From Escherichia phage vB_EcoM-RPN242: a DNA stretch of 64,000 nucleotides. The notes below the pieces were generated by a model. It searched no databases. It saw nothing but the letters and a program-made list of their open reading frames with translations, and was not told the origin of the DNA. Position numbers and translations under genes: made by a program. Position 1 is the stretch's first letter; the number at the start of each line of letters is the position of its first letter. The stretch lies in the sequence record OL656110.1; one strand, 5' to 3'. Below, piece after piece: positions 7,847-17,857 of the stretch.

Positions 7847-8424
7847 AATTTCTACACACTATCGTCGACACTTCTTATGACTGCACTGCTCATACCCCAG
7901 ACCGTTCGCCTGTGTTTGTTCTGAACAAACTAGGTGAAGAGATCTGTGAACTGTCTGATGTGTTTCATGGCATAGTATCTTCCGAGCCGTTGAATGGCGA
8001 AGTTGCTGATGTCATTATCTCTGCTATTGACCTTCTGTACGTCATGGATTATGACGACGTCCAAATGCGCGGCTCTCTGAACAAGGCCGAAATGATCGAC
8101 TCTGTCATCAACCACATGGCGACAGTGAACGATATTTCTTCTAATCTGTTGGAAGAAGACTGGTTCCGTCTGATTGATCGTGATCCTCAAAAGCATCTGA
8201 ATCTTATCCATCATTATCATGGCCGGATTATCCGATTGTGCAACCAACCTTATCGCAGTCAAGACAGATTGGATCATCTTGTCAATGACCTAATCAAGCA
8301 TGTTGCGCGCATGGGGTGTGGGGAAGGGGCGATCCGTGGATCCTCTTTGATGGCCACTCGCATTAAAGTGGAGCACGCTATTGAACACAAGGTTGAAAAG
8401 TGGCGTAGCAAATTTGGCTTATGA
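7843..8424 (+). CDS. MazG-like all-alpha NTP pyrophosphohydrolase (putative)
   Basis: LNKLGEEICELSDV resembles the MazG E-E-x-x-E metal-binding helix; ATG overlaps upstream stop (ATGA). Confidence 0.4.
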   Translation: MKFLHTIVDTSYDCTAHTPDRSPVFVLNKLGEEICELSDVFHGIVSSEPLNGEVADVIISAIDLLYVMDYDDVQMRGSLNKAEMIDSVINHMATVNDISSNLLEEDWFRLIDRDPQKHLNLIHHYHGRIIRLCNQPYRSQDRLDHLVNDLIKHVARMGCGEGAIRGSSLMATRIKVEHAIEHKVEKWRSKFGL

Positions 8425-9251
8425 AATACGAAATCATCTTAGACGCTCTCATACAGAGAGCAATACAGAGAGGTAAAATGGATGGCGTTTATCAAGAACG
8501 CCACCATATAATCCCTGTGTGCTTGGGTGGCACTAACCACTTCTCTAATCTTGTATGGTTGACACCAGAAGAACATTATGTCGTACATCACCTACTTTGG
8601 AGAACAAAACCACTCAACCCCGGTATCAGGAAGGCATGGACTGGGATGAACAACATGTCTAGGAACAACAAAGAGTTTGGGGAATTGAGGAGAAATAATT
8701 CCGCCAGAATGAAAGAAGTGATGTCATCTGATGAACAAAAGGAACGTTGTCGTAAGCAATCCAAGAAAAACTCATTGAACCCAGAAGTACAGAAGAAACG
8801 TGCGGATAGCTTGAGAGGTTACACTTGGAATGACGAATCAAGGCGCAGGTTGTCAAAATCCAGGAAAGGGATACCACACTCCGAAGCACACAAAGCCAAT
8901 CTTACCAAATCAGTCACCGAACGGATGAGGCGACCAGAAGAAAGGGAGAGGTATTCTGCTATGTGGCGCCAGAACAATCCCATGAATAACATACAACCTT
9001 GGGAACACCCGACTGTCGTAAAGACGGGTAAATCCCGACAATGGCTCTTGGCTGGTGAATTCTTTGAATGGTGGTATAGTAACGGTGAAGACAAAGTGAA
9101 GAACCGTTATTGTTTAATGTTGAAAGAAACCGGGTTAAGCTCTGTTTGTTCTAAGGCCACAGCTCAAACTTGTATATCTAAATTTCAGAAAGGTTGGATA
9201 CCAAAAGAAGATCCCGCCTGGTTGAAATTTTACGGAGATAATAATGGTTGA
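8421..9251 (+). CDS. HNH homing endonuclease with NUMOD-like motifs
   Basis: HNH core HHIIPVCLGGTNHFSNLVWLTPEEHYVVH; repeated SRKG.PHSE-type motifs; paralogous to ORF 24783-25382; sits immediately upstream of topoisomerase gene. Confidence 0.75.
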   Translation: MKYEIILDALIQRAIQRGKMDGVYQERHHIIPVCLGGTNHFSNLVWLTPEEHYVVHHLLWRTKPLNPGIRKAWTGMNNMSRNNKEFGELRRNNSARMKEVMSSDEQKERCRKQSKKNSLNPEVQKKRADSLRGYTWNDESRRRLSKSRKGIPHSEAHKANLTKSVTERMRRPEERERYSAMWRQNNPMNNIQPWEHPTVVKTGKSRQWLLAGEFFEWWYSNGEDKVKNRYCLMLKETGLSSVCSKATAQTCISKFQKGWIPKEDPAWLKFYGDNNG

Positions 9252-13120: not shown

Positions 13121-13531
13121 ATGAAATTACTGGGATATTTTCGTGAACTCCCAACGGGTACTGAAGGCAAGTTGTTCTCACAGGTGAAGGAGGATGACAT
13201 CGGTGATACGATGATTCCATTGTACACTCGTGAACTTCCTGTCGAAGGTGCCTGGGAGCGCCGTGTGGTCGCTGCCGCCAACAAATATGGTGATGTAATC
13301 GTCGTTGCCGACCGTCACCACAGCCGATTCATGAACAGCCAGCTCAAGATCCTGAAAGAAGCAGGCGTCATTAAATCCACCCATACCCGCGAACAGGGCT
13401 TCATCGACAACCAGGGAAACTTCCTCACTCGTGAAGAGGCGTGCATCGTAGCCCGTGAAGCTGGACAGATTAATCAGGTGCGCCTGAAGACAACCCCTTT
13501 CCGAGAACTCTTTTCCGAAGACCTCTATTGA
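13121..13531 (+). CDS. hypothetical protein
   Basis: 136-aa ORF in plus-strand early block. Confidence 0.5.
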   Translation: MKLLGYFRELPTGTEGKLFSQVKEDDIGDTMIPLYTRELPVEGAWERRVVAAANKYGDVIVVADRHHSRFMNSQLKILKEAGVIKSTHTREQGFIDNQGNFLTREEACIVAREAGQINQVRLKTTPFRELFSEDLY

Positions 13532-13581: not shown

Positions 13582-13824
13582 ATGAACCCAGAATTTGAAA
13601 ATCTGTTCGAGCGATGCTTCGAACCAGGTTCTGTGTCCGGTTACATGGACCGCCTTTGCACTGCCATTGTAATACGCCTTGCTGCCAAGGGTATCGTTGT
13701 CAACACCATTATCCGCAATGGGAACAACTTTATCATGCAGATGACTGATTATCACCACCGCACAGGCATCATCCAGGTGTCATGTGTTGACAACAGCATT
13801 ATTGAATGGAGACAGTACGCATGA
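13582..13824 (+). CDS. hypothetical protein
   Basis: 80-aa ORF; 3' end overlaps macro-domain gene start. Confidence 0.4.
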   Translation: MNPEFENLFERCFEPGSVSGYMDRLCTAIVIRLAAKGIVVNTIIRNGNNFIMQMTDYHHRTGIIQVSCVDNSIIEWRQYA

Positions 13825-14420
13825 CAACTTATGTAATCAATGGTGGTGATCTACTGAAAGCCGCCTGTAGCTTCAATCTGATCGACATCTTTGCCCACGG
13901 TGCCAACTGTTGGTCTACCATGGGCGCGGGTATTGCCCTGCACATCGGTAACAACTTCCCAGCCCTGCGTGAAGTCGATGCTAACGACCCTCGTGGTCCA
14001 GAGCAACGCCTGGGTGGCATGTCCTATGCATTTGACCACAGCAAGGGCGTTTGGGGCGCGAACCTCTACACTCAGTTTTATCCAGGTCCGAACGCTCGAA
14101 TGCCGTCAGTCATCAGTTCTGTTCAGACCCTGTTTGAGCAGGTGCATGAAATTGTGGAAGCAACTAAAGACGAAACTGTCTATGTCGGCCTGCCTGCTAT
14201 CGGCTGTGGCATTGGTGGCCTGAACCTCTACAGTGTAGTGCGCCATATCAATCGAATCTCTGAAAGCGTGTATGAAGAGACCCGCCGTCGTGTCGTCCCA
14301 GTCTTCTATATCAGGGAAGGAGACGGATTCGATGATGATCTGATGGAACTTTCTCATCTGGACACAGAAGGTATCATGATTGTCGAAGATGAGCAAGAAA
14401 TCATCGACGAGGAGGCGTAA
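13821..14420 (+). CDS. macro domain protein (ADP-ribose binding/processing)
   Basis: ATG 13821 with SD GGAGA; macro-like motifs HGANCWSTMGAGIALHI and GLPAIGCGIGGL; acidic C-terminal tail. Confidence 0.6.
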   Translation: MTTYVINGGDLLKAACSFNLIDIFAHGANCWSTMGAGIALHIGNNFPALREVDANDPRGPEQRLGGMSYAFDHSKGVWGANLYTQFYPGPNARMPSVISSVQTLFEQVHEIVEATKDETVYVGLPAIGCGIGGLNLYSVVRHINRISESVYEETRRRVVPVFYIREGDGFDDDLMELSHLDTEGIMIVEDEQEIIDEEA

Positions 14421-15053
14421 ATGTACAAGTCTAATTTCCTTGCAGTTGCCGACAGCGAAACCCTGGGGCGCTGGGATGATGCAGTCATGTTGTCCTGGGC
14501 GCACACCATCGCTGACCTGACCAAGCGTTATACTCTTCAGCAGCTGGTTGAGGAGCGCACGACGTTCATTAAGCTGAATGTCAAAGAGCAGCTCGAACTT
14601 GGTCGCGTGAAGGACGCTGGGACAGTTGAATGGTGGCTGGGCACGGGCAAGCGCAACCCGTGTGATGCGGCTCGCGCCGTCAGTCTGTACCCGACTGAGC
14701 AGGACATCTCTATCTTCCAGCTGGCCGATGAAATCCGCAAGGGTTGTCATCGTCTTGGGGTAGACCCGCGCTCGGTTGACTGGTGTGACCGTAACTTGTT
14801 CGATCTGCGCAAGGCTCAGCACATCATTGAGGTGACGTGTAAGCAGGATTCCAACGAGCCTTGGGATTACCACCACACCTTCGACATCGTGAGTTGGCTG
14901 AAGGGTGTTGGACAGCAGGATCGGTATGCTGGCATCAAGGCGTGGGAACTGGAAGGTATGGTCTATCATGACCCTCGTTATGATGCGGCGCTTGACTGGC
15001 TGCGTATTCAGAAGACCATGGAAGATCTGATGGGTCTGGAAGTGAAAGAATGA
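14421..15053 (+). CDS. dexA: DEDDh 3'-5' exonuclease (DexA-like)
   Basis: Exo I motif FLAVADSETLG and Exo III H-x4-D motif YHDPRYDAALD; SD GAGGAGG. Confidence 0.6.
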   Translation: MYKSNFLAVADSETLGRWDDAVMLSWAHTIADLTKRYTLQQLVEERTTFIKLNVKEQLELGRVKDAGTVEWWLGTGKRNPCDAARAVSLYPTEQDISIFQLADEIRKGCHRLGVDPRSVDWCDRNLFDLRKAQHIIEVTCKQDSNEPWDYHHTFDIVSWLKGVGQQDRYAGIKAWELEGMVYHDPRYDAALDWLRIQKTMEDLMGLEVKE

Positions 15054-15352
15054 TATTCTTCACAGTTATTGGCGCTATCGTAACAGCTGGGGTGTTCACA
15101 GCCATATTGGGCTACCTGTACTTCATGTTCCTTCATCCGTTATTTCAGGCGTTCAGTCTCACGAATTGGTACTTGGCCTGCCTAAAGGCCGACGGCGGCG
15201 TGAACATGGCCTCTCTTCCTTACTGGCGGCTGGTGGCGCATTACTACTCGGTCGGTGGCTGGCCTGGGGAAAGGACATGGAACTCTATCGGTGAGTGGTA
15301 TGGAATAGGTCGATGGCGTATATTCCCTGATGAAGACGATCAAGCCCCGTGA
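15050..15352 (+). CDS. hypothetical membrane protein
   Basis: 100-aa ORF with N-terminal TM segment; ATGA overlap with upstream gene. Confidence 0.45.
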   Translation: MIFFTVIGAIVTAGVFTAILGYLYFMFLHPLFQAFSLTNWYLACLKADGGVNMASLPYWRLVAHYYSVGGWPGERTWNSIGEWYGIGRWRIFPDEDDQAP

Positions 15353-15416
15353 GGGGCTTTTCTATATCCGGGATAGAGTATCATTGGTTCACCAACTAAT
15401 CCTCGGGAGAGGCGAT

Positions 15417-15758
15417 ATGAAACGTTCGGTTGTTGTAAATGACATCACGAGATTGATAAACCTTGTCAAAGATGTGTTTCCACAACAGGTGGATGTCGAG
15501 TACGTGGGGAAGAACGGGAAGTGTTACCAGGTCGCCCTGTTGTTGAAGCACGTGTATCCCCAAGCAGAGATCCATTACAGTCAGACCGAAGGTCATGTGT
15601 ATACTCTGATTGATGGGCATTACTACGACATCGAAGGCATCCACTTCAGTGTCCCACCGGACACGTGTTTGCTCGAACACAACAGAGGTCACAAACCACA
15701 TCGCTGGCATAAAGGGTTTGTGAACGTACCGATTTTAGAATGGTTGAGGAGACCATAA
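15417..15758 (+). CDS. hypothetical protein
   Basis: ATG 15417 with SD GGGAGAGG; His-rich C-terminal half. Confidence 0.45.
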
Positions 15759-16318
15759 TGGCAGGAATTGTAAAGTATCTGGGCGACACCCACCTCGGAC
15801 ACAAGAAGGTCTTCAAGCCCCGTGGGTTCGATACCCAAGAGGCACATGATGCTGCAGTCATCGACACGATCTTCCAGGGAATGAAGTCTCGAGACGTCCT
15901 TGAACTTGCAGGCGACATCTGCTTCATCGGGGCTGAGGGGTTCATTCGCCTGATGCGCGAGGGTGCCAAGCGGAATATCGATGAGTTCAAACGCCGCCCG
16001 GTTCCCGATGACTGGCGACCGAACTTTATCATCAGGGTGGCGCAAGGCAACCATGACAGATTCAAGATGTTGATGCATCTGTATCAAGAGGGATGGATTA
16101 GCTCCTTTGGTGCGATGTATGAGCGTGATACTCCGGTTGGTCGTGTGTTGACCACTCACGTTCCTTATCAATTGGACCGCTGGGCGTATAATATCCATGG
16201 TCATCTTCACAGTAAAATGCGTGAAGAACGTGAATACCTGAACTGCAGCTGGGAACAATTCAAGCGCCCTGTAACCCTGTCTGAGTTGTTATACACCAAT
16301 CTGGGGATTGAAATATGA
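15758..16318 (+). CDS. calcineurin-like metallophosphoesterase
   Basis: MPP motifs GDTHLGH, AGDICF, GNHD, HGHLH; TAATG overlap with upstream gene. Confidence 0.65.
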
Positions 16319-16632
16319 AAATTTATTTTCCTGGCCAAAAAGTGCCTTATAAAGTGCAGAAGGTCACAATCACAGGCTACCGGAAAGGGGATCCATATCT
16401 GCGCTTCTCCTCTCCATGTATCGTGAAGCAAACTAAAACGGGTTATTATATCAGGCCGATTGTGTTGATGGGCTGTGTAATGACGTTCAGAGCTTCCTGT
16501 GAACACGTTCTTATACAAGGAAGTCCGAACATCGAAGGTGGAGTAACCCACACGAACTGCAAGCCGATTATCCCGACATGGTTGATTATTGGTGTGCTTT
16601 CCGTTTTAGCCCTGAAAGGAGTATTGTCATGA
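16315..16632 (+). CDS. hypothetical protein
   Basis: 105-aa ORF, C-terminal hydrophobic segment. Confidence 0.4.
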
Positions 16633-17036: not shown

Positions 17037-17351
17037 ATGACCCCATTAAAAGAAATGTATGAGCGTCTGGCTGAACTACAGGCGAAGGAAAAGCGCTTCT
17101 CAGAAGAAGAGACAGAGCTGTCCGAGCTGAACACTTTGATCGCCACTCGCGAGAAGTACCTGCAGCGCTACATTAATCACCCGCCGCGCATGGTAGACCG
17201 CGTCAGCACTATCATGGACCTGGATGAAGTTACTCCTGGCAAAGAAATCATTGCCAGGGAAGTCCACCAGATGGTCGCCATGGGTCAGATCTTTGGTCGT
17301 GCAGACCAAGACGACATGATCTTCCTCCTTGAAAAGAAACTGGTGATGTGA
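17037..17351 (+). CDS. hypothetical protein
   Basis: 104-aa ORF with SD AGAGGAA. Confidence 0.5.
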   Translation: MTPLKEMYERLAELQAKEKRFSEEETELSELNTLIATREKYLQRYINHPPRMVDRVSTIMDLDEVTPGKEIIAREVHQMVAMGQIFGRADQDDMIFLLEKKLVM

Positions 17352-17857
17352 TGGCTATCAAACCCCGTATGTTATTTGCGCATATGCGCTCGGCTCATGC
17401 ATACGCTCTGTCCAGCTATGCCCAGCGCCTGAAGGTCGGCTGTGTTATCGTTGACCCGCGTGTTGACCAGCCCCTGTCTATCGGTTGGAACGGGACTGCT
17501 CCTGGCGCTCCTAATGTCTGTGAGAAGGAAGTAGACGGTCAACTGGTATCGGTGGGTGTTATCCACGCCGAGGAGAATGCTCTGAGCAAACTCCCCCAGC
17601 ACACTGAAGACTGTTGTGGCCTGGTGATGTTTGTCACTCATAGTCCATGCCCAGAGTGCACCCGTCGTATTATCGACAGTGGCAAGATCGCTAAAGTGTT
17701 CTATGACCGACCATATCGTATCATAGACGGCATTATTGAAATGCTGGATGCTGGGATTGAAGTATATCGCATGGTCGATCAGATTGTTGTAGTCCAGCAT
17801 TCTGTGAAGAGCGGCGAACTGGTATCCACCCCTGTTTTAGTGAACCCTGACAAATAA
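17351..17857 (+). CDS. cd: dCMP deaminase
   Basis: zinc-binding deaminase motifs HAEENAL and PCPECTRRI; ATG 17351 overlaps upstream stop (TGATG). Confidence 0.85.
   Translation: MAIKPRMLFAHMRSAHAYALSSYAQRLKVGCVIVDPRVDQPLSIGWNGTAPGAPNVCEKEVDGQLVSVGVIHAEENALSKLPQHTEDCCGLVMFVTHSPCPECTRRIIDSGKIAKVFYDRPYRIIDGIIEMLDAGIEVYRMVDQIVVVQHSVKSGELVSTPVLVNPDK

Follow-up and report, generated by a model that had tools for sequence, protein, structure and literature searches.

The 64,000-nucleotide stretch of DNA analysed here (the window), from Escherichia phage vB_EcoM-RPN242 (OL656110.1), contains a macro-domain gene followed by genes for a DexA-like exonuclease and a calcineurin-like phosphoesterase. An earlier note had proposed that this arrangement, next to ADP-ribose processing, reflects a counter-defence cassette rather than housekeeping functions. 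We asked whether the three genes act together against host immunity or are independent members of an early gene block.

Gene order at the locus

The phage is an Agtrevirus-like member of the Ackermannviridae. The window is its rIIA-proximal end and shares 97.8% identity with phages PC3/PH4. The macro gene, DexA, and the phosphoesterase all lie inside a dense, 18-kb early block of genes on the same strand, which runs from rIIA and topoisomerase II to dCMP deaminase. The features are as follows.

13821..14420, + strand: macro-domain protein, T4 Tk.4/AdfM homologue, directly upstream of DexA; 199 aa (mechanical ORF start 13806)
14421..15053, + strand: DexA-like DEDDh 3'-5' exonuclease; 210 aa; T4 DexA homology and invariant DEDDh residues
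15050..15352, + strand: predicted membrane protein; 100 aa, hydrophobic N-terminal segment; phrog_2531
15342..15363, + strand: GC-rich hairpin AAGCCCC-GTGA-GGGGCTT, then TTTCT (terminator scan)
15417..15758, + strand: YunG-like protein; 113 aa from ATG 15417, with a ribosome-binding site; Pfam PF24591 (8.5e-43), phrog_4814 (residues 30-142)
15758..16318, + strand: small binuclear metallophosphoesterase of the COG4186 / aq_1665 type; 186 aa, five motifs (mechanical ORF start 15740)
16315..16632, + strand: DUF7618 protein; Pfam PF24594 (1.3e-47)
17348..17857, + strand: dCMP deaminase, a nucleotide-metabolism gene of the same same-strand block; Pfam PF00383 (4.4e-16)

The exonuclease and phosphoesterase ORFs were indeed found where the earlier note had located them, on the + strand. 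The exonuclease follows the macro gene without gaps, as had been noticed, the macro stop codon (TAA) directly abutting the DexA ATG with zero spacing, and the phosphoesterase lies two genes further on, the membrane and YunG-like ORFs intervening. The start of the membrane ORF overlaps the DexA stop codon (ATGA), and its position next to DexA is conserved in Ackermannviridae loci. The mechanical ORF of the YunG-like gene begins at 15330; we took ATG 15417 as its start. Its stop codon shares one base with the start of the phosphoesterase, the stop codon of which is in turn overlapped by the start of the DUF7618 gene (ATGA). Synteny of the dCMP deaminase gene holds across all Ackermannviridae loci. 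In GenBank, related records list the macro, exonuclease, and phosphoesterase genes as "Tk.4", "DexA exonuclease", and "phosphoesterase / Ser-Thr phosphatase", and near-identical copies so named are deposited for many Ackermannviridae genomes.

The GC-rich hairpin overlaps the stop codon of the membrane ORF. Its folding energy (-13.8 kcal/mol; z only -1.37) is unremarkable by itself, and its weight rests on position and conservation only. The exact core was conserved in 9 Agtrevirus-type loci, each time at the end of the membrane ORF, and the gene insertions of relatives are located just downstream of it. We regard it as a candidate terminator or RNA-stability element that would mark a module boundary. 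With the inserted genes, the distance from DexA to the phosphoesterase ranges from about 0.6 to 2.3 kb among Ackermannviridae loci. A promoter and terminator scan from 12.4 to 19.2 kb gave counts that were not above shuffled expectation (7 vs 8.0 and 8 vs 6.4, respectively).

The exonuclease is related to T4 DexA over its full length

The protein encoded at 14421-15053 contains Exo I (ADSETLG, residues 10-16, nt 14448-14468, with D11 and E13), Exo II (NLFDL, residues 125-129, nt 14793-14807, with D128), and Exo III (YHDPRYD, residues 182-188, nt 14964-14984, which holds the H-x4-D pair H183/D188). These five residues were invariant in 23 DexA homologues with identities down to 37%. The D-x-E of Exo I aligns with 'iiDfEtmG' of T4 DexA, and D128, H183, and D188 align with T4 D119, H186, and D191 (T4 numbering from PMC12153337).

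Because Pfam gave only a below-threshold match for the exonuclease (PF16473, Rv2179c-like 3'-5' exoribonuclease, E 0.01) and none for the phosphoesterase, family profiles were needed. The DexA family profile matched T4 DexA (PDB 8kel) with an E-value of 3.9e-14 (query 12-207, chain 5-210), and hhalign of the family against T4 DexA gave 98.6% over 193 columns. A single-sequence phmmer search against 8kel was also positive over the full length (E 1.9e-4), and the protein matched the exonuclease family phrog_255 (1.8e-53). Finally, T4-like dexA genes were recovered by tblastn, with 24-28% identity over 95% of the length. With all DEDDh motifs and a match to T4 DexA at the level of the fold and over the full length, the assignment made in the earlier note holds, and on sequence grounds the ORF is the Ackermannviridae DexA orthologue, with the five catalytic residues.

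Like T4 DexA (PDB 8KEL/8KEN), the protein is encoded by an early gene, in a large virulent myovirus whose DNA is modified; the two are of the same length class (210 vs 227 aa), can be aligned end to end, and share the DEDDh catalytic set. Their identity is, however, only about 25-27%, and their genes have different neighbours (dda, modA, and modB in T4; the macro gene and the membrane protein here). T4 DexA carries a W152/D169 pair proposed to recognise 5hmC, a criterion of that proposed specificity and not of the fold family. The pair was not found in the alignment of the DexA-like protein: D169 is kept as the nearly invariant D167, but in Ackermannviridae DexA an invariant histidine (H151) takes the place of W152, the proposed 5hmC reader. 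Its substrate preference may therefore differ from that of the T4 enzyme. Since Ackermannviridae modify thymidine and not cytosine in their DNA, any self/non-self discrimination by DexA would also differ from T4.

The phosphoesterase belongs to the COG4186 / aq_1665 subfamily

The mechanical ORF of the phosphoesterase (15740-16318) encodes 192 aa. Because homologues have 186 aa and a ribosome-binding site (GAGGAG) lies upstream, ATG 15758 is the likely start. In the numbering of the long ORF, the motifs are I, GDTHLGH (residues 15-21, nt 15782-15802); II, GDICF (58-62, nt 15911-15925); III, GNHD (103-106, nt 16046-16057); IV, THVP (139-142, nt 16154-16165); and V, HGHLH (153-157, nt 16196-16210). 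All five being present, the calcineurin-like assignment previously made on GDTHLGH, GNHD, and HGHLH was borne out. The residues D10/H12, D53, N98/H99, H134, and H149/H151 (186-aa numbering) were invariant in 40 phosphoesterase sequences, down to ~26% identity, and a four-motif pattern fitted just 1 of the 166 ORF segments of at least 100 aa in the window.

The predicted structure is confident and consists of a single 186-aa domain with the fold of the calcineurin-like metallophosphoesterase superfamily. Among PDB entries, the family profile matched 1xm7 (E 2.1e-23), followed by phosphodiesterases and nucleases (GpdQ, SbcD, Mre11, Lmo2642, ApaH, and PdeM-type MPE). Structural neighbours included MJ0936, YfcE, LpxH, Lmo2642, ApaH, and Rv0805, and BFVD matches were COG4186-type phage phosphoesterases of T5-like phages, PhiW-14, GAP32, Listeria phage AG20, and Bacillus phage AR9. 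The match to the COG4186 / aq_1665 (1XM7) subfamily was specific, full-length, and clearly above other branches of the superfamily. By fold and motifs, the ORF at 15758-16318 is a binuclear metallophosphoesterase of this subfamily. It shares only about 20% identity with Aquifex aeolicus aq_1665, from which the Ackermannviridae proteins also differ by an extra segment of ~35 residues (positions 55-92) that includes a helix; distant relatives that do not have this segment match in two stretches. A literature search found no functional papers on aq_1665 / 1XM7.

Motif I (D-x-H-L-G-H) is similar to the nuclease type of Mre11, SbcD, and PdeM. Identity with Mre11/SbcD was rejected on the basis that the protein is without a capping domain and has no Rad50/SbcC or SMC-type neighbour. 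The protein also differs from PdeM and the Pseudomonas putida nuclease MPE (PDB 6NVO), as its score (20.1 bits) is far under the TIGR04123 cut-off (150) and its gene has no adjacent ligase, helicase, or Lhr partner; the phage ligase gene is about 10 kb away on the opposite strand. A homologue in PhiW-14 had prompted consideration of a role in thymidine hypermodification. We dropped this link because T5-like phages, the DNA of which is unmodified, carry the gene too.

A plausible functional analogy is offered by Gp48 of mycobacteriophage A10ZJ24 and the related Bxb1 gp47-type enzyme. Gp48 is an early-expressed metallophosphoesterase with five motifs and with phosphodiesterase and DNase activity, and it disables host defences through degradation of host DNA (PMC12287305). 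Homology beyond the superfamily level was rejected: hhalign against Bxb1 gp47, which is larger (255 vs 186 aa), gave 0.9%, with GNHD alone aligned. The example of Gp48 indicates that host-DNA degradation can act as counter-defence, and 'housekeeping' and 'counter-defence' are thus not cleanly separable.

Homology of the macro gene to T4 tk.4

Homologues of the macro protein have 199 aa, which matches the length from the likely start at 13821. The protein is 33% identical to T4 Tk.4 (BLASTP, E 1e-15). Its family profile matched, in the PDB, the macrodomains of DarG (5m3i, 3e-16; 5m31, 2.8e-15) and TARG1 (4j5r, 2e-13), and the AF2 model (pLDDT 95.5) gave TARG1 (5.7e-9), Poa1p, and DarG (3.8e-8) as top Foldseek matches. 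It also matched DarG in PADLOC (2.6e-7). Profile, structure, and homology to T4 Tk.4 thus agree on the macro domain that had been recognised upstream of DexA.

In DarG and TARG1, the lysine that follows a conserved threonine (K80 and K84, respectively) is catalytic. Unlike these proteins, the 34 Tk.4-like sequences compared, T4 Tk.4 included, have an invariant glutamine (NLYTQ) in place of the lysine of the DarG 'pTK' motif. The Ackermannviridae macro protein differs from T4 Tk.4 by a structured C-terminal extension of ~45 aa.

According to a 2025 preprint, T4 requires Tk.4, there given the new name AdfM, to resist DarTG2. Only tk.4 scored significantly in the T4 screen on DarTG2, and the paper does not mention dexA; a T4 essentiality preprint contains nothing on DexA or phosphoesterases. 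The macro gene is therefore, as a Tk.4/AdfM homologue, the only one of the three with a counter-defence (anti-DarTG2) precedent. The suggested link to DarTG has real support for this gene and not for DexA or the phosphoesterase.

Linkage of the three genes across phages

Adjacency of the macro gene and DexA was confined to core Ackermannviridae. In T4, dexA (at 8.2 kb) and tk.4 (at 60.9 kb) are 52 kb apart. No macro gene was found near DexA in Menderavirus, Acinetobacter phage SH-Ab 15599, or contig L028, and loci L028, L115, and L116 all have DexA without a macro gene nearby. The adjacency, or nearly so, is kept in the distant Vibrio phages Kuja and YC, the DexA of which is 40% identical. Such conservation in distant family members could reflect selection, not inertia.

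The phosphoesterase was absent within 8 kb of DexA in six Ackermannviridae loci (L021, L022, L027-L030). Conversely, neither DexA nor a Tk.4-like macro gene was found near the phosphoesterase in any of 62 diverse non-Ackermannviridae viral loci, and T5-like phages have the phosphoesterase without either gene nearby. Recurrent neighbours in other phages were ThyX, a ThyA-like enzyme, helicases, and a second phosphoesterase. Co-localisation of all three genes in independent phage lineages was not observed. PADLOC models gave zero matches with DexA and the phosphoesterase (E up to 0.1). In a dense 18-kb block of same-strand early genes, adjacency of the three is expected anyway.

Discussion

The explanation that we consider probable is that the region consists of independent genes of a conserved early block, namely a DexA DNA exonuclease, a COG4186 phosphoesterase, and a Tk.4/AdfM-like macro gene, and is not a cassette. 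DexA would be a divalent-metal-dependent 3'-5' DNA exonuclease, to judge from its motifs. Acting on nicked or fragmented host DNA, it would release dNMPs for the phage nucleotide pool, a role with which the dCMP deaminase gene 2.3 kb downstream would fit, and, by analogy with T4 DexA, it would resect 3' ends in recombination and homing. The phosphoesterase would be an active Mn/Fe-type phosphodiesterase, and not a protein phosphatase, with a substrate of the nucleic-acid end or nucleotide type in DNA or nucleotide metabolism. The adjacency of macro gene and DexA would be synteny inherited within one phage family. The most likely roles are thus scavenging of host DNA and trimming of DNA ends for DexA, and nucleic-acid or nucleotide metabolism for the phosphoesterase.

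That the three genes jointly counter DNA ADP-ribosylation by DarTG or nucleotide-signalling immunity appears unlikely to us. For example, the macro protein could remove ADP-ribose, DexA excise blocked 3' ends, and the phosphoesterase clean up products or messengers. The precedent of T4 Tk.4 speaks for such cooperation, as do the adjacency, or near adjacency, of macro gene and DexA across core Ackermannviridae, distant Vibrio members included, and the abutting or translationally coupled macro, DexA, and membrane ORFs. Yet the macro gene and DexA are unlinked in T4, DexA has no macro gene nearby in Menderavirus, SH-Ab 15599, and L028, the phosphoesterase lies past the hairpin and an insertion hot spot and is dispensable in some family members, and it was near DexA or the macro gene in 0/62 other loci. 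The lack of PADLOC matches for DexA and the phosphoesterase and the DarTG2 screen, in which tk.4 alone was significant, point in the same direction. Of the proposed cassette, only the macro gene's part has support. The DexA-like protein could also act chiefly on RNA or oligoribonucleotides, as an exonuclease of the Rv2179c type engaged in RNA turnover and not in DNA scavenging, as suggested by its weak PF16473 match and by precomputed PF16473 matches on many DexA homologues. This is very improbable given its specific full-length homology to T4 DexA, a DNA exonuclease (PMC12153337), and the direct recovery of T4 dexA genes by tblastn.

For the phosphoesterase, two other activities were considered. 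The known anti-defence enzymes that degrade messengers have folds (2H, metallo-beta-lactamase) that neither DexA nor the phosphoesterase shares, and this argues against the idea that the phosphoesterase alone erases an immunity-triggering nucleotide signal, for example a cyclic (oligo)nucleotide or m6dAMP from host-DNA breakdown. The nuclease-type motif I and the DNA-replication and thymidylate-synthesis genes that surround it in other phages argue likewise. In favour of this idea, its structural neighbours include phosphodiesterases and nucleotide pyrophosphatases, members of its family occur widely among virulent phages that break down host DNA, T5-like phages included, and the Metis defence system is triggered by m6dAMP set free when host DNA is degraded (bioRxiv 10.1101/2025.11.05.686725). 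On balance, we find it decidedly unlikely. We would give very little credence to its extension, in which the erasure is coupled to host-DNA breakdown and the enzyme hydrolyses alarm nucleotides (mononucleotides from DexA and other nucleases, m6dAMP included, that trigger host systems such as Metis) or cyclic (oligo)nucleotide messengers; if true, this would account for the frequent presence of the family in virulent phages by which host DNA is destroyed (T5-like, Ackermannviridae). In a weaker variant, ADP-ribosylated phage DNA would be repaired in two steps by a module of the macro protein and DexA. Lastly, action as a Ser/Thr protein phosphatase on host or phage proteins is suggested by the label in many GenBank records and by a nearby 287-aa gene of T5-like phages, also annotated 'serine/threonine phosphatase'. 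It is highly improbable, as the protein has GDTHL, GDICFIG (no DRG), and GNHD instead of the PPP signature GDxHG / GDxVDRG / GNHE, which also ruled out identity with lambda phosphatase, and as Pfam, NCBIfam, and PDB profile searches gave zero PPP matches (E up to 0.1).

If, as we favour, these are independent genes, DexA and the phosphoesterase are two ordinary early genes that were annotated already, which limits the discovery value of the locus. We find no support for the "Ser/Thr protein phosphatase" label that the small phosphoesterase commonly bears; the COG4186 / aq_1665 branch to which this protein belongs has a wide distribution among virulent phages (about 1650 clusters at 50% identity). 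The replacement of W152 in the DexA of thymidine-modifying phages provides a testable handle on how these phages may spare their own DNA, and in therapeutic Salmonella and E. coli phages the macro gene can credibly be regarded as an anti-DarTG2 (AdfM) orthologue.

Organization of the early block

The region containing the macro gene, the DexA-like gene and the phosphoesterase gene shares 97.8% DNA identity with Escherichia phages PC3 and PH4. About 200 further records match it, nearly all of them from Ackermannviridae (Agtrevirus, Kuttervirus, Taipeivirus). The window starts with rIIA, which is position 1 in such genomes, and from there to ~18.5 kb every real gene lies on the + strand, closely spaced with its neighbours, in the order rIIA/B, histone-like protein, MazG-like protein, homing endonuclease, topoisomerase II, several small ORFs, macro, DexA, phosphoesterase and dCMP deaminase. 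All three already carry names in public genomes: related GenBank records give them as 'Tk.4 protein / ADP-ribose binding protein', 'DexA exonuclease' and 'phosphoesterase / putative serine/threonine protein phosphatase', and the first two appear under such names in a published Vi01-like gene table.

Features of the early block (window positions)
8421-9251, + strand: homing endonuclease ORF (annotation in a near-identical phage), flanked by the MazG-like gene and topoisomerase II
13121-13531: 136-aa protein (phrog_839), directly upstream of the macro-DexA pair, kept family-wide
13821-14420: macro gene
14290-14420: C-terminal extension of the macro protein (residues ~157-199), strand-helix-strand-helix, confidently modelled
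14421-15053: DexA-like ORF
15050-15352: 100-aa protein with hydrophobic N-terminus (membrane ORF), between DexA and the phosphoesterase
15342-15363: GC-rich hairpin (loop GTGA) followed by a short run of T, overlapping the membrane-ORF stop codon
15417-15758: YunG-like protein (Pfam PF24591), between DexA and the phosphoesterase
15740-16318: phosphoesterase ORF
15920-16033: family-specific insertion in the phosphoesterase (residues ~55-92), a long helix and a conserved 10-residue loop
16315-16632: DUF7618 protein, downstream of the phosphoesterase

The earlier note had described the junctions correctly: the DexA ATG directly follows the macro stop codon, and two ORFs separate DexA from the phosphoesterase. 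An ATGA overlap joins DexA to the ORF after it. The phosphoesterase gene shows translational coupling on both sides, with the YunG-like gene upstream and the DUF7618 gene downstream; its start is probably at 15758, because the homologues are 186 aa long and the ATG there is preceded by a GAGGAG site. The YunG-like gene travels with it in Agtrevirus and Kuttervirus loci and was not detected in Taipeivirus loci. The 13121-13531 product, without a Pfam match, is called 'Arn.3' in one record and 'putative tRNA processing enzyme' in another.

The core of the hairpin is identical in 9 Agtrevirus-type loci and the gene insertions of relatives fall just downstream of it. The site therefore has the look of a boundary between modules, or of a plasticity hot spot, with a DUF7234-macro-DexA-membrane ORF block on one side and a YunG-phosphoesterase-DUF7618 block on the other. 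This division is suggestive only, since the hairpin energy is unexceptional and scan counts are in line with the shuffled expectation.

The DexA-like exonuclease

The DEDDh motifs are all present in the 210-aa product (ADSETLG, aa 10-16; NLFD, aa 125-128; YHDPRYD, H-x4-D, aa 182-188). A single-sequence PDB search matched only T4 DexA (8kel/8ken), weakly (E 1.9e-4) and over the full length, while a profile built from 23 homologues reached it at E 3.9e-14 and hhalign gave 98.6% over 193 columns. Further evidence was obtained by tblastn, which recovered annotated dexA genes of T4-like phages (24-28% identity, 95% coverage). D11, E13, D128, H183 and D188, invariant in the 23 homologues, align with the catalytic residues of T4 DexA (PMC12153337). 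The protein is a member of the DexA family, an assignment in which we have high confidence. T4 DexA has two established roles, the breakdown of host DNA to recyclable mononucleotides and DNA resection in intron homing, and its W152 and D169 have been proposed to read 5-hydroxymethylcytosine (PMC12153337). We infer that the window protein has DNA 3'-5' exonuclease activity, which would most likely serve host-DNA scavenging and end resection. Given the part of T4 DexA in homing-associated resection, the homing endonuclease ORF at 8421-9251, which has no Pfam match, is of relevance.

In the window protein and its homologues W152 is replaced by an invariant His (H151), while D169 corresponds to a nearly invariant Asp (D167). 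In Ackermannviridae thymidine is modified, not cytosine. Because of this and of the replacement of W152, a specificity pocket differing from that of T4 DexA is plausible.

The phosphoesterase

All five calcineurin-type motifs are present (GDTHLGH, GDICF, GNHD, THVP, HGHLH), and the metal-ligand residues are invariant across 40 sequences. Pfam gave no match, PHROGs placed the protein in phrog_547 ('phosphoesterase'), and the sole NCBIfam match, PdeM, was far below threshold (20 bits vs a cut-off of 150). An exhaustive profile search returned 1650 representative clusters, mostly single-domain proteins of 155-200 aa. The wider family profile matched 1xm7 (Aquifex aeolicus aq_1665, of the COG4186 subfamily; E 2.1e-23), then GpdQ, SbcD/Mre11, Lmo2642, ApaH and a PdeM-type nuclease, with no PPP phosphatase among its structure matches. 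AlphaFold modelled the protein with confidence (pLDDT 87.8), and matches in BFVD are COG4186-type phosphoesterases of T5-like phages, PhiW-14, GAP32, a Listeria phage and Bacillus phage AR9. Distant relatives align in two stretches because they lack the segment at residues ~55-92 present in the Ackermannviridae proteins. We hold this family assignment, too, with high confidence.

The absence of the PPP signature (GDxHG / GDxVDRG / GNHE) leaves the customary 'Ser/Thr protein phosphatase' label unsupported. In T5-like phages (Escherichia phage DaisyDussoix, L004, 4656-6585), the COG4186 homologue lies one gene from a second gene, of 287 aa, and both are annotated 'serine/threonine phosphatase'. 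No functional study of this subfamily turned up in the literature. Mycobacteriophage Gp48 (Bxb1 gp47 type), an early metallophosphoesterase, has been proven to act as a DNase and in counter-defence (PMC12287305); it shares no kinship with the window protein beyond the superfamily and offers an analogy only. The protein is most likely an active phosphodiesterase acting on nucleic acids or nucleotides, our confidence in the substrate being low.

The macro gene

The macro protein is 33% identical to T4 Tk.4 (E 1e-15). Its family profile is nearest to DarG macrodomains and TARG1, and its model (pLDDT 95.5) matches TARG1, Poa1p and DarG. According to a 2025 preprint, tk.4, renamed adfM, is the single T4 gene needed on a DarTG2 host. 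The Ackermannviridae protein carries an acidic C-terminal extension of ~45 aa that the 155-aa T4 Tk.4 lacks. In all 34 Tk.4-like sequences, T4 Tk.4 included, an invariant Gln (NLYTQ) aligns with the Lys of the 'pTK' motif in DarG. This Lys is catalytic in DarG and TARG1. Because of its replacement, Tk.4-like macro proteins may counter DarTG2 by a mechanism other than the DarG-like glycohydrolase reaction.

Linkage of the three genes

The earlier note had suggested that DexA and the phosphoesterase, beside the macro gene, form a counter-defence cassette, and had mentioned DarTG. We examined the linkage within the family, in other DexA lineages and in other phosphoesterase lineages. A cooperative role of the three proteins agrees with the macro-DexA arrangement, adjacent or within ~1.3 kb in ~30 Ackermannviridae loci, distant Vibrio phages Kuja and YC included. 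The DexA-to-phosphoesterase distance there ranges from ~0.6 to 2.3 kb because of inserted genes, such as a PP-loop ATPase in ChubbyThor, and no phosphoesterase was present within 8 kb of DexA in related loci L021, L022 and L027-L030. In T4, dexA (8.2 kb) and tk.4 (60.9 kb) are unlinked, and the 8 kb around DexA held no Tk.4-like macro gene in Menderavirus IME-SM1, Acinetobacter phage SH-Ab 15599 or contig L028. In T5-like phages the phosphoesterase sits in an early region with neither DexA nor a macro gene nearby, and profile searches of the flanks of 62 diverse phosphoesterase-bearing viral contigs detected neither DexA nor a Tk.4-like macro gene in any of them. PADLOC models matched neither DexA nor the phosphoesterase. 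These results do not support the cassette claim, a conclusion that we hold with moderate confidence; DarTG is pertinent to the macro gene, as a homologue of the tk.4 that T4 requires on a DarTG2 host, and we consider joint counter-defence by all three proteins unlikely. That the phosphoesterase erases a defence signal seems to us improbable; its recurrent neighbours in those viral contigs (ThyX, a ThyA-like enzyme, helicases, a second phosphoesterase) point to a setting of DNA replication or nucleotide metabolism.

In the unrelated Stenotrophomonas phage IME-SM1 (L115, 8000-13900), DexA lies ~3 kb upstream of NadM / ADP-ribose pyrophosphatase and nicotinamide phosphoribosyltransferase genes. 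We take this pair to be of the NAD+-reconstitution type, NARP2 being our own reading of it and not the record's annotation.

On balance, we favor the view that the apparent grouping of DexA and the phosphoesterase with the macro gene reflects synteny inherited inside a packed early block.
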